NCBI GenBank assembly: GCA_041660185.1
Contig: JBAZWU010000001.1
Coordinates: forward strand, 338,313-402,312
Direction: 5' to 3'
Length of the DNA: 64,000 bases
DNA from: Elusimicrobiota bacterium
GTDB taxonomy: Bacteria; Elusimicrobiota; Elusimicrobia; 2-01-FULL-59-12
Of the stretch, positions 1 through 16,512 are shown one piece after another. The notes beneath the pieces were generated by a model, which was not told the DNA's origin, made no database searches, and saw nothing but the letters and a program-made list of their open reading frames with translations. Within the stretch, counting starts at the first letter, position 1, and each line of letters opens with the position of its first letter. A program made the position numbers and the translations under genes.

Positions 1-295
1 TCTGCTTTTTGGGAACGAGCCGACCGGAGCTCGTTTTTGCTGGGTCCATGCGTGATTCGCCGTTTTCGATAATTGGGAAAGGCCAAGGGGAACTATTTCG
101 GGATGGACATCGGAGGCCTTTTCTTTGGCCTGGTGGTCGGAAGACAGACGCAGCCGGTGAAGCCGCATCCCATGCAACAGTAAACCTTATCTCCGATCCG
201 GAATCCTTTGGACGAGGACCAACGACTTTTTTTTAAACGGCAGTTTGGGCAGTTACTCATGACTCATTCTAGCATTTCCCTCGGTGTTTTGAGGG

Positions 296-1294
296 TTAAA
301 GATTTATTTTATGGAGTTTAATGCCGGCTTCGCGCAGGAGAGCTTTGGCCTGAGTGGCGAGCGGGTAATCCTGATTGTAGATGACTTCCACAATCCCGCC
401 GTTAATGATCATCTTGGTGCACTGCAGGCAGGGTGAGAACGTCGTGTAGAGGCTCGATCCTTTGATTGCGATGCCGTGATAGGCGGCCTGGACGATGGCG
501 TTTTCTTCGCCGTGGGAGCAGACGCACTCGCTTAAGCTCTGTCCGGAAGGCCCGATGGTGTTACAGCGCGGACAGCCCCCCTCAAAGCAGTTCTTCGTGT
601 TACGAGGCGTCCCATTATATCCCGTCGATATAATACGGCCGTCTTTTACGATGACCGCGGCCACTTTACGCTTTAGGCAGTTGGAGCGGGTGGCCACGTT
701 CTGGGCGATGTTCATGAAATAAGAATCCCAGCCTGGACGTTTCATCTGTTTCAAAGCAACGCGAAGGAGCGTTGTGGTACGCTCGTGGAGTTGGTCCAGA
801 GTTCCATTGTTGGGAAGGGTGGCATCCGCCAGTTTTGCGCAGGCCTCCAGTGATTGTTTGTTCGGATCGGTGTTATGGGCCTCGCGCCTTTCGACGATCT
901 TAAACGCCGCCAACGTTTGAGGATCGTTCTCCCGGGCGCGCGCTTTGATGCGTTCGAAACGCGCTTCAGGAGAGGCGGTAATGGCCCATAGCCTGAAGTC
1001 CGGACGCCGGCGGAAGGCTTCCACTTCCCCTGGGTTGCGGAAAGAATCGATCACATAGTTTTGATTTTCGCCGAGGGTTTTCAGGATCCGTTCCGCGAGG
1101 ATGGAAGGCCCGTATTTCAGGCGCAGCTCGTTGCCCACCCGCGTGAGGTGATCCCGGGTCGGCGTCATCTTGCGGCGCTGGAGTTCTTTTCGGAGAATGT
1201 CCGACAGCGAGGCGAACTGGAACCCGCGCTCCTGCAGGAACTTCGCGACTTCCCCTTTACCCGATGCGTTTTTCCCTGTCAGACCTATGATCAT
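296..1294 (-). CDS. P-loop nucleotide kinase fused to dCMP/dCTP-type zinc cytidine deaminase (332 aa)
   Basis: N-terminal Walker A GLTGKNASGKG in a CoaE/CMP-kinase-like fold. C-terminal ComEB-type deaminase with WDSYFM, CFEGGCPRC, HGEENAI and SPCLQC zinc motifs. Its start overlaps the pheT stop by 4 nt (ATGA). Confidence 0.8.
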   Translation of the reverse strand: MIIGLTGKNASGKGEVAKFLQERGFQFASLSDILRKELQRRKMTPTRDHLTRVGNELRLKYGPSILAERILKTLGENQNYVIDSFRNPGEVEAFRRRPDFRLWAITASPEARFERIKARARENDPQTLAAFKIVERREAHNTDPNKQSLEACAKLADATLPNNGTLDQLHERTTTLLRVALKQMKRPGWDSYFMNIAQNVATRSNCLKRKVAAVIVKDGRIISTGYNGTPRNTKNCFEGGCPRCNTIGPSGQSLSECVCSHGEENAIVQAAYHGIAIKGSSLYTTFSPCLQCTKMIINGGIVEVIYNQDYPLATQAKALLREAGIKLHKINL

Positions 1295-3681
1295 TTTCTT
1301 AATACCGCCTCACATTTTTTCTCGAGGTCTGTGATGATCTTCTGCATGACTTTCTCCACGTCCGCGTCGTCCAGAGTCCGGTCGCGGTGCCGGAAGAGAA
1401 GCGAAACCGTCAGGGACCGGCGGTCTTTTCCGATTTTTTCTCCCTGGAAGAGATCGATCAGCGAGACGGATTCCAGAAGGACGCCGCCGGAGGTGCGCAG
1501 CGTCTGGGCGATTTTTTCGTAGGGGACGGAAAGCGGGGAGGTGACCGAGAGATCGCGATACACCGCCGGGAACGGGTTCAGCGGTTTGTAGGTGACGGTG
1601 GCTGGAAGGATCTGTCGGAGCGCGGCCAGGTCCAGCTCCGCGGCCACGAGCGTGTTTTCCGTATCCAACTCCTGCACAAGTTCCGGATGCAGCTCACCGA
1701 ACCAGCCGATGACGGTGCTGCCGGAGACGATCATGGAAGAACGCCGGGGATGAAATGACGCGATTCGGCAGGGGGTGATCTGAATCGGCGGCAGGTGCAG
1801 CGCGTTCTGCAGGGACGTGAGGAACCCGGTGAGATCAAAATAATCCGCGGACCGCTTTTTCCCGCGCCAATGGTGGCTCACGATTTCCCCGCCCAGGACG
1901 ATGCCGAGCCGGCGCTGTTCATGGAGACCGTCATGGTCCTTGTAAAAAATGCGTCCAATCTCAAAAAGCGAAACGCCGGGCATCTGATGGTGAAAATTGA
2001 GAACCGCATTCTGCAGAATGGCTGGCAGAAGGCAGGTTCGCAGCACCGCCTGCTCCTGAGAGAGCGGATTGGCCAGCCCTACCGGTTGAGCGTCCGGGGA
2101 TTGTCCAAGCCCGGGGATAAAGGGGAACGCCTGTTTCTGGCTCAAAAACGTATAGTTGACCACTTCGTTCAGCCCGAAGCCGGACAGAAGCTTGGAGATC
2201 CGCTGTTCAAAAGACCACCACGGATCTTCGGGAACGCCGGTGATGCGAATAGCCGGCGCGCGCGCCGGAATATTGTCGTAGCCATGCAGCCGGGTCAATT
2301 CTTCCATGAGATCGGCTTCCGTGGTGATGTCCAGCCGCCAGGATGGAGCATTCACATGGAGTTGACCGGTGCCCATGTTGATCTCGCAGCCGAGGCGCCG
2401 CAGAAGCGCGGCCGCCGTCGCTTCTTTGAATTCGATTCCGAGAAATTGACGGATGCGCTCGATGCGAAGCTTGATGGTTGGCTGAATCGGCGGTTGTGCC
2501 GAGATTTCCAGAGGCTTAAACCCAAGACCCCCGGCCAGTTCCTGAATCAGCTGGGCGGCACGCCGTGAGGCAAAAGCCACCATGTTCCAGTCGGTTCCCC
2601 GTTCGAAACGGTAAGAGCTTTCGGAGCTGACCCCCAGGGTTTTGCTGGCCTGCCGGACCGCCGGCGCATAAAAAGCGGCGCTCTCCAGAATCACTTCTCG
2701 CGTTCCCGCGTCGATGGCAGAAGCTTCCCCGCCCATTACCCCGGCCAGAGCCGCCGGAGAGGACTCATCCGCGATCACCAACAAGCCTTCCTGCAGTTCA
2801 ACGGTCTGGCCGTCCAGGAGCAGCATTTTTTCCCCGGCTTTAGCGCGGCGGATCTGGATGTGACGGCCTTTCAGTTTTGCGGCGTCGAACGCATGAAGCG
2901 GTTGTCCCAGTTCGAGCATGACGTAATTCGTGGTATCGACGATATTGTTGATGGACCGGAACCCGCAGCGCGTGAGGCGCTGAATCATCCATTCGGGAGA
3001 GGCCCCGACCTGGATGTCCCGGATGGCGCGGGCGATATACCTTGGGCATAAATCCCGGGCGTCGTTGGACAGCGTAACCGAGTTGGCGATATCCAGCTCT
3101 CGCACCCGGGGTTCCGGCATTTTGAGTGGGAGGGAGAAAGCGGCCGCCAGTTCGCGGGCAACGCCGAGAATACTGAGCGCATCGCGCCGGTTTGGGGTCA
3201 CCTCAATTTCAATCAGAGTGTCGTCCAGCCCCAGAATCGGGCGGATGTCCGCTCCTAAAGGGAGGACCGGATCCAGTTCCAGAATTCCCTCAGATTTTTC
3301 TTCAAGACCCAGCTCTGCGCGTGAACAGATCATTCCCTGGGATTCCACGCCACGGAGCTTGGCGGCTTTGATCTGAAGTCCATTGGGCAGCACCGCGCCG
3401 ATGCGCGCTAGCGGAACGCGTTGACCCTCTTTCACATTGGGGGCGCCGCAGACCACCGAAAACTCATGTTGGCCGTCAAAGACCTTGCACAGCGACAAAC
3501 GATCCGCGTTGGGATGTTTCCCCACCTCGCGGACTTCCGCTGTGACGACGCCTTCCAGCGGGCCTCCAAAGGTTTGGACCGAAGCGACTTCAAACCCAAG
3601 ACGGGCCAGCGTATCCGCTGTTTCCTGAGGAGAAATCTCCAGCGGGACAAATTCTTTAAGCCAGTTGTAGAGCAGTTTCAT
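1291..3681 (-). CDS. pheT: phenylalanine--tRNA ligase beta subunit
   Basis: 796 aa. N-terminus MKLLYNWLKEF, tRNA-binding, B3/B4 and B5 regions typical of PheT. Lies immediately downstream of pheS. Confidence 0.95.
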   Translation of the reverse strand: MKLLYNWLKEFVPLEISPQETADTLARLGFEVASVQTFGGPLEGVVTAEVREVGKHPNADRLSLCKVFDGQHEFSVVCGAPNVKEGQRVPLARIGAVLPNGLQIKAAKLRGVESQGMICSRAELGLEEKSEGILELDPVLPLGADIRPILGLDDTLIEIEVTPNRRDALSILGVARELAAAFSLPLKMPEPRVRELDIANSVTLSNDARDLCPRYIARAIRDIQVGASPEWMIQRLTRCGFRSINNIVDTTNYVMLELGQPLHAFDAAKLKGRHIQIRRAKAGEKMLLLDGQTVELQEGLLVIADESSPAALAGVMGGEASAIDAGTREVILESAAFYAPAVRQASKTLGVSSESSYRFERGTDWNMVAFASRRAAQLIQELAGGLGFKPLEISAQPPIQPTIKLRIERIRQFLGIEFKEATAAALLRRLGCEINMGTGQLHVNAPSWRLDITTEADLMEELTRLHGYDNIPARAPAIRITGVPEDPWWSFEQRISKLLSGFGLNEVVNYTFLSQKQAFPFIPGLGQSPDAQPVGLANPLSQEQAVLRTCLLPAILQNAVLNFHHQMPGVSLFEIGRIFYKDHDGLHEQRRLGIVLGGEIVSHHWRGKKRSADYFDLTGFLTSLQNALHLPPIQITPCRIASFHPRRSSMIVSGSTVIGWFGELHPELVQELDTENTLVAAELDLAALRQILPATVTYKPLNPFPAVYRDLSVTSPLSVPYEKIAQTLRTSGGVLLESVSLIDLFQGEKIGKDRRSLTVSLLFRHRDRTLDDADVEKVMQKIITDLEKKCEAVLRK

Positions 3682-3684
3682 CGT

Positions 3685-4761
3685 TTAAAATTGCCGCAGG
3701 AATCGCAGGTCATTTTCATAAAAAAGCCGCATGTCATCAACGCTGTATTTCAGCATGGCCAGGCGTTCGACGCCCATCCCGAAGGCGAATCCGGAGTATT
3801 TCTCCGGATCAATTTTAACGCCATGCAGCACATAGGGATTCACCATGCCGGAGCCCAGCAGTTCCAGCCACCCGGTATTTTTGCAGACCCGGCAACCGGT
3901 TCCCCCGCAGAAACACGAGACATCCATTTGTGCTGAAGGTTCTGTGAACGGGAAAAAGGTGGGCAAAAAACGAGTTTTCGTGCTCGGTCCGAAGAAAGCC
4001 TGTGCAAAATGCGAAAGGGTTCCCTTTAAATCAGCGAATGAAATCCCTTCATCCACCAGAAGCCCTTCGATCTGGTGAAAAACCGCCGAATGCGACGCAT
4101 CCACCGCTTCGTGGCGGTAGACGCGGCCTGGGGCGATGATCGCGATGGGCGGCGGATATTTCTCCATGACGCGGACCTGTACGGGAGAGGTGTGGGTCCG
4201 GAGTAAAACCGGTTCGTGACGGGCCTGTCCGTCCTGTAAATCTGGCAGCGGCAGCTGCCGGCGGCTCATCTGCAGATAAAACGTGTCTTGCATGTCGCGT
4301 GCGGGATGGTTGTCGGGAATGTTCAGGGCCTCGAAATTGTAGTATTCACTTTCGATCTCCGGCCCGTCGGTGGTGACAAACCCCAGCGAACGGAAAATGC
4401 CGACGAGTTCGCCCATGACCTGGTCGAGCGGATGCAGATGCCCGAGCGGGTAAGGCGTTCCCGGCAGCGTGGTATCCAGAAGGTCCTGTTCGAGAGTCCG
4501 GGAGCGTTCGGATTTTTTTAGTGCTCGTTCAGCGTCGGTTAGAGAGGTTTCAAAGGCCGCTTTCAGGCTGTTATAAAGGGGTCCATAGTTCTTCCGTTCT
4601 TCCAGGGTCATTCCCGGAAGCTGCTTCAGGAGGGTTGTCAGGTGTCCTTTCCGGCCCAGCCAGGCTACCTTAACAGCTTCCAGTGCCTCCAGAGTTTTTG
4701 TTTTCTCCAGTTGGGATTGGAATTCAGAACGCAGTGTTTCGAGATCGGGAAGAGAGCTCAT
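3685..4761 (-). CDS. pheS: phenylalanine--tRNA ligase alpha subunit
   Basis: 358 aa. Class II aaRS motifs (FRPSYFPFTEPSAQMDV, GMGVERLAMLKY). Confidence 0.95.
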   Translation of the reverse strand: MSSLPDLETLRSEFQSQLEKTKTLEALEAVKVAWLGRKGHLTTLLKQLPGMTLEERKNYGPLYNSLKAAFETSLTDAERALKKSERSRTLEQDLLDTTLPGTPYPLGHLHPLDQVMGELVGIFRSLGFVTTDGPEIESEYYNFEALNIPDNHPARDMQDTFYLQMSRRQLPLPDLQDGQARHEPVLLRTHTSPVQVRVMEKYPPPIAIIAPGRVYRHEAVDASHSAVFHQIEGLLVDEGISFADLKGTLSHFAQAFFGPSTKTRFLPTFFPFTEPSAQMDVSCFCGGTGCRVCKNTGWLELLGSGMVNPYVLHGVKIDPEKYSGFAFGMGVERLAMLKYSVDDMRLFYENDLRFLRQF

Positions 4762-4776
4762 GAGTGCGTATTTTAG

Positions 4777-4817
4777 AATAAAAAAGGCTCTGAGCCGAAG
4801 TCCGCCGAATCAGAGCC
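4777..4817 (-). terminator. intrinsic terminator/attenuator-like hairpin between rplT and pheS
   Basis: In minus sense: GGCTCTGA(16-nt loop)TCAGAGCC followed by a UUUUUUAUU tract, about 20 nt upstream of the pheS ATG. Confidence 0.6.
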
Positions 4818-4830
4818 TTTAAACATTTTC

Positions 4831-4912
4831 GTCATTCCCCGCGGTCGTAAGCGGGGAATCCAGTCATAAGCTTTGCCGCTTGGATCCCCCGCCAGAACCT
4901 GCGGGGGATGAC
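4831..4912. repeat. bipartite GC-rich palindromic intergenic repeat, copy 1
   Basis: GTCATTCCCCGCGG..CCGCGGGGAATC hairpin plus GGATCCCCCGC..GCGGGGGATGAC hairpin. Same family recurs at 26465, 30560 and 31967. Confidence 0.6.
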
Positions 4913-4932
4913 ATCTTTAAAAGAGTGCTGGC

Positions 4933-5292
4933 TTAAGTGCCGGCGGCCGCCTTCGCTGTTTCGGCCAGTTCCTTGAAAGCGCTCTGGTCCACAACCGCCA
5001 ACTCCGCCAACATCTTGCGGTCTAACACCACGCCAGCCTTCTTTAAGCCGTAAATCAGCTGGCTATAGGAGAGGTTGTGCATCCGGGCGGCGGCGTTAAT
5101 CCGCTGAATCCATAGGGCGCGGAACTCGCTTTTGCGGTCTTTCCGACCCACGTAGGAGTAGCGAAGAGAGCGCTCCACCTGCTGAATAACCTGCCGCCAC
5201 CGGCTGCGTTTCGAGGCGTACGAGCCTTTGGCGATTCGAAAGATCTTCTTTTTGCGCTGACGCGTCGTTTTTCCGCTTTTTACACGAGCCAT
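4933..5292 (-). CDS. rplT: 50S ribosomal protein L20
   Basis: 119 aa. MARVKSGKTTRQRKKKIF...VLDRKMLAELAV is a canonical L20 sequence. Confidence 0.95.
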   Translation of the reverse strand: MARVKSGKTTRQRKKKIFRIAKGSYASKRSRWRQVIQQVERSLRYSYVGRKDRKSEFRALWIQRINAAARMHNLSYSQLIYGLKKAGVVLDRKMLAELAVVDQSAFKELAETAKAAAGT

Positions 5293-5317
5293 GAATTAAT
5301 CCTGTTCTTAAGAAATA

Positions 5318-5515
5318 TCAATTATAAGGGAGGAGCGCCTTAATCGTTTTTCCATCGACCTTGTTGAGGTAGTGCGCCTTTCGCAGATGGCGTCCGCGAT
5401 TGGCGGACATGCCGATCAATAGGTGGCGCAGGCCTGGTTTTTTGTGCTTGACCTTGCCGTGCGCCGTGATGTGAAACCGTTTTCCTGCTCCGCGATGTGA
5501 TTTTATCTTTGGCAT
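5318..5515 (-). CDS. rpmI: 50S ribosomal protein L35
   Basis: MPKIKSHRGAGKRFHITAHGKVKHKK. The ORF was trimmed from the track's upstream-extended start to the internal Met. Confidence 0.9.
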   Translation of the reverse strand: MPKIKSHRGAGKRFHITAHGKVKHKKPGLRHLLIGMSANRGRHLRKAHYLNKVDGKTIKALLPYN

Positions 5516-5528
5516 ATGTTCTCTCTCG

Positions 5529-6077
5529 TCATTTTTTCGGGGCAAACAGAAGGCTTTTGCGGTTGCCATCCATTCGACCGTCCTGCTCTAAAACCGCGAC
5601 ATCCTGAATTCGTTCCTTCACGCGCTCGATCAGCGGGTTGGCTAGATCGGTATGCTCCATTTCGCGTCCGCGGAAGACAAAGGTCAAACGCACTTTGTCG
5701 TGTTCCTCCAGAAACTCACGCATATGATTGATCTTGATGTCCAGATCATGAAAACCAATCTTCGGCCGGATGCGGAGCTCTTTAACCTGTCCGCCTTTCT
5801 GCTTCTTGCGCGCTTCTTTCAATTTCTTTTCCCGCTCGTAGCGGAACTTGGAGAAATCAGTCAATTTGCAGACAGGAGGATTGTTCAGTGCCGCGATTTC
5901 GACGAGGTCCAGACCGCGATTCAGGGCGAGCTGCAACGCTTCTTCGAGAGATCGGATGCCTAACTGTGTGCCGTCAACATCAATAAGCCGTATGTCCCGT
6001 GCCCGTATCTGATGGTTGATGCGTGGTTCTTGCGTCTTATTTATAAGCTTGCGACCTCCTGTTTGAAATGACGGCAA
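5529..6077 (-). CDS. infC: translation initiation factor IF-3
   Basis: IRARDIRLIDVDGTQLGIRSLEEALQLA...ELRIRPKIGFHDLDIKI is a canonical IF3. The true start is uncertain (IF3 commonly uses a non-ATG start). Confidence 0.9.
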   Translation of the reverse strand: MPSFQTGGRKLINKTQEPRINHQIRARDIRLIDVDGTQLGIRSLEEALQLALNRGLDLVEIAALNNPPVCKLTDFSKFRYEREKKLKEARKKQKGGQVKELRIRPKIGFHDLDIKINHMREFLEEHDKVRLTFVFRGREMEHTDLANPLIERVKERIQDVAVLEQDGRMDGNRKSLLFAPKK

Positions 6078-6115
6078 AAACGAACCGAAATCTTAATAAA
6101 TCGACGGTCAGGGTG

Positions 6116-7855
6116 TCAAATAACGCGCTTTTTGATTTCCTGCTCCAGGCCTTCGATAAAGGTGGCCACAGGTTGAGCCCCGAGGTTCTCTCCGGTGCGT
6201 TTGCGGACGGCGACCGAGTTGTCCAGTTGTTCCTGGTCTCCCACCACCAGCAGATAAGGAATCTTGTCCAGAGTGGCCTCGCGAATTTTAGCCCCGATCT
6301 TGTCGCTGCGGCAGTCCATTCCCACACGATAACCGCGCTGGCGGAGTTCGGCCGCGATTTTGGCGGCATAGGTGTTTTGGCGATCGGTGATGGTCAGTAC
6401 TTTCGCCTGGACGGGCGCTAGCCAGGCCGGGAAGGCTCCGGCGTACTGCTCAATCAGAATACCGATAAACCGTTCCAGAGAGCCCAGAAGCGCCCGGTGG
6501 ACCATGATGGCGCGCTGGTCCTTGCCGGTGTCGTCCCGGTAGGTTACATCGAATTGTTCTGGAAGATTAAAGTCCACCTGAACGGTGGAGCATTGCCAGT
6601 AGCGGCCCAAACAGTCTTTGATCTTGAGATCGATCTTCGGCCCATAAAAAGCGCCTCCGCCAGCATCGACGTCGAATGTCAGGCCTTTTTTCGTAATCGC
6701 GTCCCGCAGGGCTTTTTCCGAGCGTTCCCAATTCTCCGGAGTTCCGACAAACTTCTCGGGGCGGGTGGACAACGAAACAGCATAGTCCTTGAATCCAAAC
6801 GTCTTGAGAATCTCCAGGGTCATGTCGATGATCGAGATGACTTCGCTTTCAATCAGGTCCGGGCGGCAGAAAATATGCGCGTCGTCCTGCGTAAAGCCGC
6901 GCACCCGCAGGAGCCCGTGCATGACGCCGCTGCGCTCGTAGCGGTAAACCGTGCCGAACTCCGTCAACCGGATGGGAAGCTCCCGATAGGAGTGGAGTGA
7001 ATTTTTGTAGATCTGGATGTGGCCGGGGCAGTTCATGGGTTTGAGCAGATATTCCTGGTTGTCAATCACCATGGGACTGAACATGTATTCGCGATAGAAG
7101 TTCCAGTGTCCGGACGTTTTCCAAAGTTCGAGGCGCGCCACGTGCGGGGTAATCACAAATTCGTAGGCGTTCTTTTCGAGCAACTCCCTCAGATACTCCT
7201 CAACCATCCGGCGCAGCACGGCTCCCTTCGGCAGCCAGAAGATCAGCCCCGGGCCGATCGTTTCGGGGAGGATGGAGAAAAGCCCCAGGCGGGGTCCCAG
7301 CTCGCGATGATCCCGTTTCTTGGATTCTTCCAGGCGGGTCAGGTAGCCGTCCAGTTCCGCCTGAGTCGTCCAGACCGTTCCATAAATACGCTGAAGCTGT
7401 TCGCGTTTTTCATCCCCCCGCCAGTAGGCACCGGCCACGCGGAGCAGTTTGAAATAACGGATCTCTTCAGTGGTTTCGATGTGACCACCCCGGCAGAGAT
7501 CCACAAAGGTGTCATGCAGACAATAGGTGACCGTTGGGGTGTTGAGGTCGTCGATCATCTCCACTTTAAACTTTTCCCCCCGGTGCCCCCAGAACTGGCG
7601 CGCCTCATCGCTCGAATGCGTGCTCATCGTGAAGCGGTGGTTCCCTTTCACGATTTCAGTCATCCGTTTTTCGATGGCAGGCAGATCCTCCGGGACAAAG
7701 CGGTGGTTGCTTTCAAAATCGTAGTAGAAGCCGTCCTCGATCGTCGGTCCGATGGTCAACAGGGTGTTCGGGAAAAGATCCTGCACCGCCTGCGCCATCA
7801 CATGCGCGGTCGAGTGCCGGAGATTGTTCAGGTATTCTTCGGAGGTTGTATTCAC
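6116..7855 (-). CDS. thrS: threonine--tRNA ligase
   Basis: 579 aa. HSTAHVMAQA editing-domain motif, class II core and a C-terminal anticodon-binding domain. Conserved thrS-infC-rpmI-rplT-pheST order. Confidence 0.95.
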   Translation of the reverse strand: MNTTSEEYLNNLRHSTAHVMAQAVQDLFPNTLLTIGPTIEDGFYYDFESNHRFVPEDLPAIEKRMTEIVKGNHRFTMSTHSSDEARQFWGHRGEKFKVEMIDDLNTPTVTYCLHDTFVDLCRGGHIETTEEIRYFKLLRVAGAYWRGDEKREQLQRIYGTVWTTQAELDGYLTRLEESKKRDHRELGPRLGLFSILPETIGPGLIFWLPKGAVLRRMVEEYLRELLEKNAYEFVITPHVARLELWKTSGHWNFYREYMFSPMVIDNQEYLLKPMNCPGHIQIYKNSLHSYRELPIRLTEFGTVYRYERSGVMHGLLRVRGFTQDDAHIFCRPDLIESEVISIIDMTLEILKTFGFKDYAVSLSTRPEKFVGTPENWERSEKALRDAITKKGLTFDVDAGGGAFYGPKIDLKIKDCLGRYWQCSTVQVDFNLPEQFDVTYRDDTGKDQRAIMVHRALLGSLERFIGILIEQYAGAFPAWLAPVQAKVLTITDRQNTYAAKIAAELRQRGYRVGMDCRSDKIGAKIREATLDKIPYLLVVGDQEQLDNSVAVRKRTGENLGAQPVATFIEGLEQEIKKRVI

Positions 7856-7875
7856 AATAGCCTATTAAAACAAAA

Positions 7876-7952
7876 TGGTGCCCGGTGAGGGACTCGAACC
7901 CACGACCCCCTCCATGTCAAGGAGGTACTCTAACCAACTGAGCTAACCGGGC
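7876..7952 (-). tRNA. tRNA-Val (anticodon GAC)
   Basis: Reverse complement GCCCGGTTAGCTCAGTTGGTTAGAGTACCTCCTTGACATGGAGG...GGTTCGAGTCCCTCACCGGGCACCA folds as a cloverleaf with CCA encoded. About 20 nt upstream of thrS. Confidence 0.85.
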
Positions 7953-8124
7953 AGAAATCCAGACGTATTCTAATGTTTTAGAAGGGTTATGACAAATTAG
8001 GCGGGTATAGAAATGAGAGCAGCGGCAAGCTCAGAAGCCTTTTGTTGTTCTTTTAAATTGGCCTGTGAGCACTCCAAGGACCATCATTGCAGAACCAACC
8101 GTCTGACATAAACTATGTCACTAA

Positions 8125-10809
8125 TCACTCCCGGGCTCGCCGCCAGGCTTTGATCCCCTCCATGACCACCAGAGGCATCAGGGACAGCCCCACGGCAAGC
8201 CCCAACTCGGACAGATTGGGAGCCATCGTCTTGAATACCTTTTGCGCGGGTAGCCAGACCATAATTCCGATTTGGAGAGCAAAGGAGATCACGGTGGCTC
8301 CCGCCAGCCAATGATTTGAAAAAGGACCGATTTGAAAGATGGAGAGGCGTTCGCTACGACTGTTGAAAGCATGCACCAGCTGCGCGATGGCCAGTACCAA
8401 GAAAGCCATCGAACGCGCCCGCTCCACCCCGGCTTGCTCCACCCAATAGACGTAACCGAAAGCCGCCAGCGAGCAGGCCGCAATCAAGGCACCCGCCCCC
8501 AGCATGTCCATGATGAACACCCGGTTGATGATCTCTTCGTTGCGGTTACGCACCGGGCGGCGCATGAGATCCTTGGGAGGAGGATCGACTCCAAGGGCCA
8601 AGGCCGGCAGTCCATCGGTGACCAGGTTCAGCCACAAAATCTGAACCGGCAGAAGAGGGAGCGGCCAGCCGATCAAAGAGGCCACGAACATCACCAGGAC
8701 TTCTCCCGTATTGCACGACAATAAGTAATACACGAACTTGCGGATGTTCTCGTAAATCCCCCGGCCTTCCTCAACGGCTGCCTCAATCGACGCAAAATTG
8801 TCGTCGAGCACCACCATGTCCGCGACTTCCTTCGTGACGTCGGTCCCCGTGATTCCCATGGCGACCCCGATATCGGCCTCTTTAAGCGCCGGCGCGTCGT
8901 TGACGCCGTCTCCGGTCATCGCCACCACCATCCCTCGGGAATGCCAGGCCCGGACGATACGCAGTTTGTGCTCGGCCGACACGCGCGCGTAAACGCCGAC
9001 CTGATCGACGCGATGGGCCAGGTTTTCTTCGGATAATTGGTCGAGTTCAATCCCGGTCAGCGACTCCTGGCCCGGCCCCATCAATCCTAACTCGGAGGCG
9101 ACCGCCTGAGCCGTTCCCGGGTGGTCTCCGGTGATCATGACGATGCGGATGCCAGCCTCCCGGCAGTGCCGTATGGATTCGGCCGCTTCCGGACGAGGAG
9201 GATCCTGCATCGCTGCCAGTCCCGTGAACACCAAATCCTGCTCCAAGGTTCCGTGGTCAGCCGTGGCGGGCTTTTGATCAAAATCCCGGTAGGCCATCGC
9301 CAACACCCGGAGCCCTTGTGTCGCCAGGGTCTCATTTATTTTTGCGACATCCTGGCGCTCCACATCGCCGAGAGCCTCCACCCGGCCACCCCGGTGCAAA
9401 TACCGGCAGTGGTTCAGGATGACGTCCGGTGCCCCTTTCATATAGGCTCTCCATCCGGAGCCTCTCCGGCAAAGCACCGTCATACGCTTGCGCTCGGAAT
9501 CAAAGGGAACCTCGGCTTCGCGAGGTTCTTCCTTGTCCAGTTGCTCTTGCAAAAGCCCGATCTTGGCCGCCGCCGTGAGGAGTGCCCCTTCGGTCGGGTC
9601 GCCCACCACCGTCCAACGGCCTTCTTTCTGGTGAAGCCCGGAACCGTTGCACAAGACTCCCCCGCGCAGAGTCAAGGTCAAATCCTCCGGTAAACCGGCC
9701 TGGGCGCCCGTCTGTCCTTTCGTCCGGATTTCTCCTTCCGGCGCATACCCGGCTCCCATCACTTCATAAAAGACCCCGCCGGCCCAGACCTGACGAACGG
9801 TCATTTCATTTTGCGTGAGGGTTCCGGTTTTATCCGAACAAATGACATTCGTGCAGCCCAACGTTTCCACGGCGGGCAGCTTCCGGATGAGGGCGTGTCG
9901 TTTGACCATGCGCTGCACACCCACGGCCAGCGCCATGGTCACGACCGCCGGCAAACCTTCCGGTATCGCGGCAACCGCCAGACTCACCGCGGTCAAGAAC
10001 ATTTCCACAATGGGGACACCACGGATCAGGCCAAGTCCGAAAACCACTCCTACAATCAAGAGGCATAGGTAGACCAGCCAACGGCCGAGGGCCTCGAGAC
10101 GTTTCTGAAGGGGGGTGGCCTCTTCGCCGCTGGAGGCGAGAAGCCCGGCAATCTTCCCCAGCTCGGTCGCCATCCCGGTTTCGGACACGACCATCCGTGC
10201 TTTCCCAGAGACGGCGGCTGTGCCGAGAAACACCATCGTGGCCCGGTCACCCAGCGGCGTGTCTTCCGGCAAAGGACGGTCTGTTTCCTTGGAAACGGGT
10301 GTCGATTCCCCGGTGAGCGAGGCTTCCTGCGTTCGAAAAGAGGTCGCCCAAACCACCCGCCCATCCGCCGGGATATGGTCGCCAGCCTCCAGTTCCACCA
10401 AATCCCCGGGAACTAGTTGCGAGGAAGGAATGGCTTGCTTCTGCCCGTCGCGGATGACTCGAGCCGTTGGGGTGGACAGCTTTTTTAATGCCGCCAGAGA
10501 CTTCTCCGCCCGGTATTCCTGGAAAAATCCCAATCCCGCATTCAGCAGGATGATCGCCAGAATCGCCGCCGTATCAACCCACTCCTGAAGCACTCCCGAA
10601 AGGACAGCCGCCCCGATGAGGACCCACACAATAAGACTCTTGAATTGATCAAAAAACAGGGTCAGCGCTGACACGCCCTTCGCTTCCGCCAAAACGTTCG
10701 GCCCGTGAGTCGCCAGTTGTTTATCCACCTGGACGCGAGACAACCCTTTTTCCAGATTCGTCCCGAAGACATCGACAATTTCTTCGATATTGAATGTCCA
10801 AACTTTCAT
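8125..10809 (-). CDS. cation-transporting P-type ATPase (PMCA/SERCA-like Ca2+/Mg2+ type)
   Basis: 894 aa. DKTGTLT phosphorylation site, [15 protein letters not shown] and MVTGD motifs, 10 TM helices. Confidence 0.9.
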
Positions 10810-15988: not shown

Positions 15989-16010
15989 CCTACTCCATTT
16001 ATGAGCACAG

Positions 16011-16081
16011 AGCGGGTGAAGGGAATCGAACCCTCATCTCATCCTTGGCAAGGATGCATTCTACCACTGAACCACACCCGC
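16011..16081 (-). tRNA. tRNA-Gly (anticodon GCC)
   Basis: Reverse complement GCGGGTGTGGTTCAGTGGTAGAATGCATCCTTGCCAAGGATG..GAGGGTTCGATTCCCTTCACCCGCT forms a cloverleaf. CCA is not encoded. Confidence 0.85.
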
Positions 16082-16172
16082 TCTGTGCCCACCAGAATGA
16101 ATAGCGCATCAAAAGAACTGCTCGGGGCGCCCCACCTGCCCATGGTCCTTTCGGGACAGCCCCCCAAAAAAC

Positions 16173-16254
16173 TGCTCGGGGCGGGACTCGAACCCGCAAG
16201 CCTTGCGGCATACGCCCCTCAAACGTACGCGTCTGCCAGTTCCGCCACCCGAGC
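16173..16254 (-). tRNA. tRNA-Leu (anticodon GAG), type II with long variable arm
   Basis: Reverse complement GCTCGGGTGGCGGAACTGGCAGACGCGTACGTTTGAGGGGCGTATGCCGCAAGGCTTGCGGGTTCGAGTCCCGCCCCGAGCA. The D-arm is near-identical to E. coli tRNA-Leu. Confidence 0.85.
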
Positions 16255-16278
16255 GAAAATCACATGTCCCTCACGACA

Positions 16279-16427
16279 GACGCCCCTCAAACGTACGCGT
16301 CTGCACCGTCCCCTATATCGCGGTCCCTTCGGGACCGCTTAAATCGACGGTGCTGCCCCGTCGATTTAGCACGCGCTTGGCGCGTGCTTCTCAGAGGACG
16401 GGGCTGCCAGTTCCGCCACCCGAGCGA
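16279..16427 (-). pseudogene. truncated duplicate of tRNA-Leu 5' half carrying a ~100-nt hairpin-rich insertion
   Basis: GCTCGGGTGGCGGAACTGGCAG and CAGACGCGTACGTTTGAGGGGCGT match the intact tRNA-Leu. They are interrupted by a 99-nt insert (16305-16403) with three perfect GC hairpins. There is no T-arm or 3' acceptor. Confidence 0.6.
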
Positions 16428-16436
16428 AATTTAAAT

Positions 16437-16512
16437 TGGAGGTGCGGGCGGGAATTGAACCCGCACATAGCAGTTTTGCAGACTGCCGCCTTAGCCATTT
16501 GGCTACCGCACC
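16437..16512 (-). tRNA. tRNA-Cys (anticodon GCA)
   Basis: Reverse complement GGTGCGGTAGCCAAATGGCTAAGGCGGCAGTCTGCAAAACTGCTATGTGCGGGTTCAATTCCCGCCCGCACCTCCA. CCA is encoded. Confidence 0.85.

Follow-up and report, generated by a model that had tools for sequence, protein, structure and literature searches.

Housekeeping deoxycytidine monophosphate (dCMP) deaminases carry a G[Y/W]NG motif at the site where deoxycytidine triphosphate (dCTP) activates and deoxythymidine triphosphate (dTTP) inhibits the enzyme, whereas in the anti-phage enzyme AvcD the motif has diverged to GCND and dTTP does not inhibit (bioRxiv 10.1101/2021.03.31.437871). The RNA antitoxin of AvcD, AvcI, is encoded just 5' of the avcD gene, and the reported Walker A mutant of AvcD is S52K, so the wild-type protein has a serine at the position of the lysine (bioRxiv 10.1101/2021.03.31.437871). 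Point mutations in the N-terminal domain of AvcD abolish its activity, with the kinase reaction itself not demonstrated (bioRxiv 10.1101/2021.04.26.441389, 10.1101/2021.03.31.437871). The defensive dCTP deaminase is 576 residues long and has a sparse distribution that suggests horizontal transfer (bioRxiv 10.1101/2021.04.26.441389). The two-domain architecture has also been mentioned in passing for archaea and fungi (bioRxiv 10.1101/2021.03.31.437871), and in yeast the housekeeping dCMP deaminase Dcd1 provides deoxyuridine monophosphate (dUMP) (PMC6063437). Here we describe a shorter kinase-deaminase fusion from an Elusimicrobiota bacterium. Its gene lies in a window of 64,000 nucleotides (the whole stretch of DNA that was analysed, from contig JBAZWU010000001.1), and a first-pass annotation had proposed it as a candidate AvcD/DCD-type enzyme while leaning towards a housekeeping role. 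The gene quite likely codes for a two-domain dCMP deaminase with a housekeeping role and allosteric regulation; it is coupled to pheT and stands last in a thrS-infC-rpmI-rplT-pheS-pheT string. Its domains, fold, GYNG motif, colinearity with fungal enzymes, genomic context, synteny, selection and base composition all support the housekeeping role.

The open reading frame (ORF) is a real conserved gene and no chance ORF, since a protein identical to it over all 332 residues is present in public data under the label 'MAG: deaminase [Elusimicrobiota bacterium]' (P0001; MAG, metagenome-assembled genome). The guanine plus cytosine (G+C) content of the gene, 0.53-0.59, is similar to that of its neighbours. 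The ATGA overlap of its start codon with the pheT stop codon, pointed out in the first-pass annotation, is confirmed (Table 1). In the reverse complement of positions 1281-1310, the pheT frame ends in ...GTA TTA AGA AAA TGA (VLRK and stop) and the deaminase frame begins with ATG ATC ATA GGT CTG (MIIGL). By its arrangement, this overlap is a translational coupling of the deaminase gene to pheT, and the gene is probably co-expressed with the translation genes of the string. The same ATGA is found in the homologous loci L001 and the P0048 contig, and a gap of 4 nucleotides takes its place in L087. Scans for promoters and terminators showed none on the strand of the gene; their counts were at or below shuffled expectation and so carry no information. 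Antisense ORFs over the gene, such as that at 1061..1522 on the plus strand (153 residues), were considered as genes and rejected: we treat them as shadows of a coding region rich in G+C, and similar stop-free stretches are absent in L087.

The assignment of the C-terminal half is straightforward. It matches the Pfam family dCMP_cyt_deam_1 (PF00383) over residues 189-306 with 84.7 bits (cut-off 25) and an E-value of 4.6e-24, and a sequence search of the PDB with this half gave as best matches the dCMP deaminases of Streptococcus mutans (2hvv, E-value 5e-22), phage T4, cyanophage S-TIM5 and human. A Foldseek comparison of the deaminase domain with the S. mutans, S-TIM5, T4, human and PBCV-1 enzymes resulted in template-modelling (TM) scores, here and below normalised to the target, of 0.82-0.90; the matches to 2hvw and 4p9e had an E-value of 1.7e-13 and TM scores of 0.86-0.90. 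The residues expected at the active site, H261 and E263 of the HGE motif and C289 and C292 of the PCLQC motif, are invariant in our family alignment A1. The first-pass annotation had read the HGE correctly and regarded it as a departure from the usual HAE, but this observation carries no weight, as HGE occurs in 128 and HAE in 45 of the 192 members of the compact family to which the protein belongs. The GYNG motif is likewise invariant in A1 and is present in 190 of these 192 members, including all of the 120 closest. It is followed by a cluster of five cysteines that is probably the binding site of a structural zinc ion; the GGCPRC part of this cluster (residues 239-244, GGCxRC) is found in 114 of the 120 closest members.

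The fold and the HxE, PCxxC and G[Y/W]NG motifs are all shared with single-domain dCMP deaminases, namely those of S. mutans (2hvv/2hvw), T4 (cd, 1vq2), S-TIM5 (4p9c), human (DCTD, 2w4l) and Bacillus subtilis (ComEB), whereas the kinase domain is absent from these enzymes. Although it belongs to the dCMP deaminase class, the protein is not a ComEB orthologue, because its score against the ComEB equivalog model TIGR02571 is 107 bits and the cut-off is 219. Its deaminase half shares 64% identity with a deaminase that stands alone on a 107-kb viral contig (L090) and has the same GGCPRC cluster, 35-37% with ComEB and a Parabacteroides dCMP deaminase, and 24-27% with anti-phage enzymes.

The N-terminal half belongs to the P-loop kinases. 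Pfam AAA_18 matches residues 3-123 with 43.8 bits (cut-off 29.4) and AAA_17 matches with 40.3 bits (cut-off 27), so that the fusion of a P-loop kinase to a zinc deaminase claimed in the first-pass annotation is borne out by profiles above threshold for both domains, and the GLTGKNASGKG that it had picked out is indeed a Walker A sequence. Four motifs characteristic of kinases are present, a GxxxxGK (G7-K13), SLSDILR (residues 29-35), DSFRNP (83-88) and RFERIKARAR (112-121), and each of them is conserved in 118-120 of the 120 closest members, the GxxxxGK in all 120; across the 192 members, the Walker A lysine is found in 186. The invariant residues of this half in A1 include K13, R35, T46, R47, D83, S84, R86, R112, R115, R119 and R121. 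We take SLSDILR to be the counterpart of the STGDMLR of adenylate kinase and UMP-CMP (uridine and cytidine monophosphate) kinase, IDSFRNP that of LDGFPR, and the arginine-rich stretch (RxxRxxxRxR) that of the LID. This resemblance to adenylate kinase and UMP/CMP kinase speaks for a phosphate-bearing acceptor.

The AlphaFold2 model of the whole protein has a mean predicted local distance difference test (pLDDT) score of 87, and none of the Foldseek matches was a solved structure spanning both domains. The best match of the kinase half is SSO1041 (3lw7, TM score 0.83), an adenylate-kinase-related protein whose structural-genomics entry contains bound adenosine monophosphate (AMP), followed by AK5 and dephospho-CoA kinases. 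Proteins of this UPF0200/SSO1041 type (3lw7, 3h0k; PRK08356) are the nearest relatives of the N-terminal domain (phmmer E-value 4.6e-12, TM scores 0.83-0.85), and PRK08356 itself matches residues 1-178 with 80 bits, below its cut-off of 189. They stand alone, whereas the domain in the window protein is fused to a deaminase, and to our knowledge no function has been established for these proteins. The kinase-family matches are thus generic (AAA_17, AAA_18, UPF0200). The archaeal (d)CMP kinase model of NCBIfam, TIGR02173, gave a weak match (E-value 0.007), no specific kinase equivalog was approached, and we found no characterised close homologue that would point to phosphotransfer or its substrate. 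Stand-alone homologues of the kinase half with the same motifs do exist, namely P0381 (188 residues, 48% identity) and a Marinovum protein (33%). P0381 is encoded at L103:5001-5567 (+), where an Amidohydro_3 gene is its neighbour to one side and rpsU and glyA (serine hydroxymethyltransferase) are found to the other; no deaminase gene is nearby, and the surrounding genes give no clear hint of a substrate.

A further comparison is that with the long-form deaminases of Dothideomycetes and other fungi. The Elasticomyces elasticus protein named 'Deoxycytidine monophosphate (dCMP) deaminase' (P0322, 699 residues) aligns by BLASTP with residues 1-331 of the window protein at 34% identity and an E-value of 3e-56, and the alignment pairs MLIGICGGLCAGK with MIIGLTGKNASGKG and STGYNGTPRNVKNCNDGGCPRCN with STGYNGTPRNTKNCFEGGCPRCN. 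The first 333 residues of the Elasticomyces protein were used to collect 119 further fungal proteins of about 335-410 residues, of which the named ones are mostly called 'Deoxycytidylate deaminase'. On average, a comparison of the compact family with 25 fungal proteins gives 170 bits and 36% identity over 293 residues. The fungal enzymes share with the window protein the colinear domains and the GYNG, HxE, PCxxC and GGCPRC motifs, GYNG and GGCPRC being present in all 119. Their kinase motifs, on the other hand, are decayed, whereas in the window protein all are conserved: the nucleoside monophosphate (NMP)-binding motif, DSxRNP and the arginine cluster of the LID are each found in 0 of the 119, and the Walker A lysine in 60. 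The Dcd1 of Saccharomyces cerevisiae (312 residues) presumably has the two-domain form as well. A remark by Hsueh et al. on Ascomycota homologues is consistent with a two-domain Dcd1 (bioRxiv 10.1101/2021.03.31.437871).

The family is large and already annotated, with thousands of entries labelled dCMP deaminase, and the gene is typical of it. Among the candidates scored, more than 5,400 homologues had an E-value of 1e-5 or better, and the best 120 are nearly all 330-338 residues long and share 60-82% identity with the window protein. When one genome per species was scanned, at least 578 species proved to encode a relative, with a uniform length of about 330 residues. A search of 1.84 billion cluster representatives gave 579 at E-values of 1e-30 or better, and full-length relatives of 320-370 residues were found at identities as low as about 33%. 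The best 80 loci encode proteins of 325-336 residues with 53-77% identity, and they come from Elusimicrobiota, Acidobacteriota, Omnitrophota, Myxococcota, Planctomycetota, Nitrospinae and other bacteria as well as from Micrarchaeota and other DPANN archaea. In A1, pairs of sequences are on average 56% identical over residues 1-182 and 74% identical over residues 183-332; judged from such conservation, both domains are under strong purifying selection.

Among the viral contigs searched there was no full kinase-deaminase fusion; the relatives found there were mostly deaminases alone, plus one protein of 285 residues (L089:456-1313 (+)) from a contig of 11 kb assigned to viruses. Over the deaminase domain this protein shares 63% identity with the window protein, and its N-terminal domain is decayed (MIVVLCGEALPLK), with the glycines and the lysine of the P-loop gone. 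A divergent protein of 323 residues from a 910-kb metagenome contig (P0306) presents the converse: its kinase motifs are kept (GITGFNGAGKT), GYNG is changed to GYVD and the cysteines of PCxxC are lost, so that it looks like a pseudo-deaminase.

The genomic context is that of a housekeeping gene. The deaminase gene closes a string composed of tRNA-Val, thrS, infC, rpmI, rplT, pheS and pheT, and in the public version of the same DNA (L082) the pheT product contains the Pfam domains tRNA_bind, B3_4, B5, tRNA_synthFbeta and FDX-ACB. The order from thrS to the deaminase gene, followed by a gene for a SEC-C-motif protein, recurs around homologues of 70-75% identity (P0039/L085, P0066/L087 and the P0048 contig); pheT is immediately upstream of the 77% identical homologue in L001, and a GAF histidine kinase and a MIP channel upstream of thrS are common to the window and L087. 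The gene is inherited together with pheST within this Elusimicrobiota lineage, among the examined relatives of 70-82% identity, and such co-inheritance had been named in the first-pass annotation as an argument against a role in defence. Beyond the close Elusimicrobiota lineage, the link disappears, and pheT adjoins the gene in only one of the 80 genome loci. For this reason, we regard the link as a local operon structure and not as a functional coupling; a functional connection with phenylalanyl-tRNA synthetase was considered and rejected. We also surveyed 138 immediate neighbours at about 70 loci from many phyla with PADLOC and Pfam. Only about 5 of the 138 match any PADLOC model (PDC-S01, RtcR-like, PD-T4-6 and mad6), and the commonest Pfam families are LytB/IspH (15), acyl-CoA dehydrogenase (6), CYTH (6), NamZ (5) and P5C reductase (3).

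Table 1. Coordinates of the deaminase gene, its domains and motifs, and the adjoining genes (window positions)
Feature	Position	Strand	Details and basis
Kinase-fused dCMP deaminase, coding sequence	296..1294	minus	332 residues and stop, ATG start; ORF list, Pfam, identical public protein
NMP-kinase-like P-loop domain	749..1294	minus	residues 1-182; Pfam AAA_18/AAA_17, AlphaFold2 fold match, motif conservation
Walker A/P-loop GLTGKNASGKG	1253..1285	minus	residues 4-14, Lys13 included; sequence reading
Zinc dCMP-deaminase domain	299..748	minus	residues 183-332; Pfam, PDB sequence match, Foldseek
GYNG, G[Y/W]NG motif of the dCTP/dTTP allosteric site	611..622	minus	residues 225-228; reads GGA TAT AAT GGG
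Cysteine cluster C236, C241, C244, C257, C259 (NCxEGGCPRCN...C.C)	518..589	minus	invariant in A1
Catalytic HGE	506..514	minus	residues 261-263, zinc-binding His and proton-shuttle Glu; reads CAC GGC GAA
PCLQC, two zinc-binding cysteines	419..433	minus	residues 288-292; reads CCC TGC CTG CAG TGC
ATGA overlap of pheT stop and deaminase start	1291..1294	minus	sequence reading
pheT, upstream in shared transcription unit	1291..3681	minus	ORF list
tRNA-Val, thrS, infC, rpmI, rplT, pheS housekeeping string	3685..7952	minus	ORFs, Pfam domains of thrS, tRNA-Val

A housekeeping dCMP deaminase could also be built with an N-terminal domain that does no catalysis and serves as a nucleotide-binding module for regulation or oligomerisation, as is probably the case in fungi. 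The loss of motifs in the fungal enzymes, the viral variant without a P-loop and the AvcD mutations that abolish activity where no kinase reaction has been demonstrated are all in agreement with this possibility. In the prokaryotic compact family, however, the kinase motifs are complete in nearly every one of the closest members, and K13, R35, D83, R86, R112, R115, R119 and R121 do not vary in A1. Because the catalytic motifs are invariant there, catalysis would be expected rather than mere binding, and the stand-alone homologues with the same motifs also speak for a working kinase. Hence, we consider a non-catalytic N-terminal domain unlikely.

Alternatively, the protein might be a salvage enzyme, in which the kinase acts as the main (d)CMP or deoxynucleoside kinase for imported deoxycytidine or (d)CMP and the deaminase is a side branch. 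Such a function would suit the lineages with reduced genomes in which the family is common (Omnitrophota, Elusimicrobiota and Micrarchaeota), and the weak TIGR02173 match and the divergent P0306, which keeps its kinase motifs without the zinc ligands of the deaminase, can be read in the same way. Nevertheless, the deaminase half is the more conserved of the two, and the kinase matches are generic ones that come close to no specific kinase equivalog, which makes a primary role in salvage very unlikely.

The remaining alternative, the AvcD/DCD candidacy raised in the first-pass annotation, is that of an anti-phage enzyme such as AvcD/DcdV of Vibrio cholerae, which stays silent until infection and then destroys the pools of dCTP, deoxycytidine diphosphate (dCDP) and dCMP to starve the phage. 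The protein does resemble these enzymes. The domain order is the same, with a P-loop kinase-like domain followed by the zinc deaminase, the PADLOC model dCTPase (PDLC02373) matches with an E-value of 1.1e-56 and 191 bits, and the NCBIfam model NF041025, 'anti-phage dCTP deaminase', matches across both domains (E-value 2.3e-41). An IDSxRxP motif in the kinase domain is found in 118 of 120 compact and 107 of 120 anti-phage proteins. Since the profile matches extend over both domains and this motif is shared, the two families, including their N-terminal domains, are homologous.

In detail, the protein differs from the anti-phage enzymes. The NF041025 score is only 142.1 bits, compared with an equivalog cut-off of 400; three members of the compact family from other phyla reach 140-155 bits, whereas a plasmid-borne bona fide member scores 421. 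As a reference, we used this last protein, an annotated anti-phage dCTP deaminase encoded at L081:3536-5236 on the Pseudosulfitobacter plasmid NZ_CP054602.1 (566 residues), to which the window protein is 26% identical by BLASTP over residues 75-323 only, and 120 of its relatives (median length 542 residues; the named ones mostly from Proteobacteria and mostly called 'anti-phage dCTP deaminase'). The mean match between the compact and the anti-phage family is 71 bits with 26% identity. Anti-phage proteins are 520-575 residues long compared with the 332 of the window protein, and the alignment attributes to them an N-terminal extension, an insert in the kinase domain, a long one in the deaminase domain and some 100 extra residues at the C-terminus, the last of which the window protein lacks. 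Between the G-x-N motif and HxE, they have 75-96 residues (n=120), whereas the window protein and the compact family have 30. In place of GYNG, they have GTNE, GTND or GAND, and GYNG and GGCPRC are each found in 0 of the 120. In addition, nearly all of them are without the Walker A lysine, GxxxxGK being present in only 4 of the 120, so that the window protein with its GYNG, GGCPRC and lysine is their opposite at these positions.

The gene's surroundings lead to the same conclusion. As its start codon overlaps the pheT stop codon, there is no intergenic DNA at the 5' end and hence no room for an AvcI-like RNA, which the first-pass annotation had suggested looking for, and Rfam gave no match near the gene (only tRNAs in the window). 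Constitutive co-translation with PheT is also hard to square with a toxin that depends on an antitoxin. The housekeeping neighbours and the conserved synteny of the relatives with 70-82% identity differ from the sparse, horizontal distribution reported for the defensive enzyme (bioRxiv 10.1101/2021.04.26.441389), and the neighbour survey pointed to housekeeping surroundings rather than to defence islands or mobile elements. The L081 reference itself is flanked by an IS630 transposase gene; on its other side are a gene for a hypothetical protein of 172 residues and a pair of genes for a ThiF-family adenylyltransferase and multiubiquitin (6114-8407), which together look like a small defence cluster. 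Judged by its sequence and context, the gene is on the housekeeping side for every feature that was tested against the anti-phage family, and we consider an anti-phage function extremely unlikely.

Several points nevertheless weigh against the assignment as a housekeeping two-domain dCMP deaminase. The matches of the PADLOC model and of NF041025 over both domains and the shared IDSxRxP are real, and the protein may have in common with the anti-phage family an activity on dCTP. Because the motifs have decayed in its fungal relatives, the N-terminal domain may be non-catalytic here too. Identities of 55-63% across phyla, archaea included, imply some horizontal spread. Finally, biochemistry on prokaryotic members of the family was not found in the literature, and our literature searches gave nothing specific on the compact fusion or on the structure of AvcD.

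On the housekeeping reading, the zinc ion would be held by H261, C289 and C292, and E263 would shuttle the proton. A deoxycytidine nucleotide would be converted to the corresponding deoxyuridine nucleotide, most likely dCMP to dUMP; dCDP or dCTP might also serve as substrates, because the PBCV-1 (dCMP/dCTP) and AvcD enzymes take both. The dUMP would supply thymidylate synthase and the reaction would set the balance between dCTP and dTTP. From the GYNG motif we would expect dCTP to activate the enzyme and dTTP to inhibit it, as they do the T4, human and streptococcal dCMP deaminases. As the gene is the last, translationally coupled one of a translation operon, its level is expected to be tied to the translation machinery.

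The N-terminal domain, in which all NMP-kinase motifs are conserved, is probably catalytically active as a phosphotransferase. Our guess for its reaction, which we offer as a possibility held with less than even confidence, is that it would interconvert dCMP and dCDP using an adenine nucleotide. The domain would then either pass dCDP made by ribonucleotide reductase on to the deaminase or split dCMP between the branches leading to dCTP and dTTP. The dCMP kinase/deaminase channelling that the first-pass annotation had proposed is likewise no more than a possibility. A bolder version makes the protein a true bifunctional catalyst, in which dCDP + ADP <-> dCMP + ATP (ADP and ATP, adenosine di- and triphosphate) or an equivalent reaction is followed by transfer of dCMP to the dCTP/dTTP-regulated deaminase. 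The compact form would then be ancestral-like, and both other forms would be derived, the fungal one by decay of the kinase and the anti-phage one by loss of the Walker A lysine and the allosteric site and by gain of the inserts. We regard this version as rather doubtful.

A few observations concern the surroundings of the gene. A cysteine-rich ORF of 55 residues (93..260, minus strand; MSNCPNCRLKK...CCMGCGFTGCVC) begins 35 nucleotides downstream of the deaminase gene; it has no match in Pfam above the cut-off and is missing from the publicly available gene calls of this DNA (L082). Relatives have a SEC-C-motif protein of 108-114 residues at this position, and here a SEC-C protein of 93 residues is encoded further downstream, beyond the window. 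The rpmI ORF as called (5318..5569, minus strand, 83 residues) overlaps the 3' end of infC (5529..6077, minus strand) by 41 nucleotides. Because L35 of the relatives has 65 residues, the true start of rpmI is probably an internal ATG (MPKIKSH...). A tRNA-Val(GAC) gene (7876..7952, minus strand) is directly upstream of thrS, and genes for tRNA-Gly(GCC), tRNA-Leu(GAG) and tRNA-Cys(GCA) are clustered at 16010..16512 (minus strand). Rfam detected three of these four tRNAs at the gathering threshold, and the tRNA-Leu that it missed was found by ARAGORN.

The gene itself is ordinary, and the interest that remains is in its kinase half with all motifs intact and in the match of a defence hidden Markov model (HMM) to a housekeeping family. 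Because the PADLOC dCTPase HMM matches this family with E-values of about 1e-56, surveys of defence in Elusimicrobiota, Acidobacteriota, Omnitrophota and DPANN archaea may over-count 'dCTP deaminase' systems where the HMM match alone is considered. The GYNG motif, the Walker A lysine, the spacer of 30 as opposed to 75-96 residues and the length of the protein are clean discriminators between the housekeeping and the anti-phage proteins. We know of no answer from the fungal enzymes as to the role of the P-loop domain, and the compact family, since it has kept every kinase motif, is the best place to learn what this domain does in kinase-deaminase fusions. If the bifunctional scheme were true, a single protein would lead from the ribonucleotide-reductase product to dUMP, a pathway not described before, in DPANN archaea and many uncultivated bacterial phyla.

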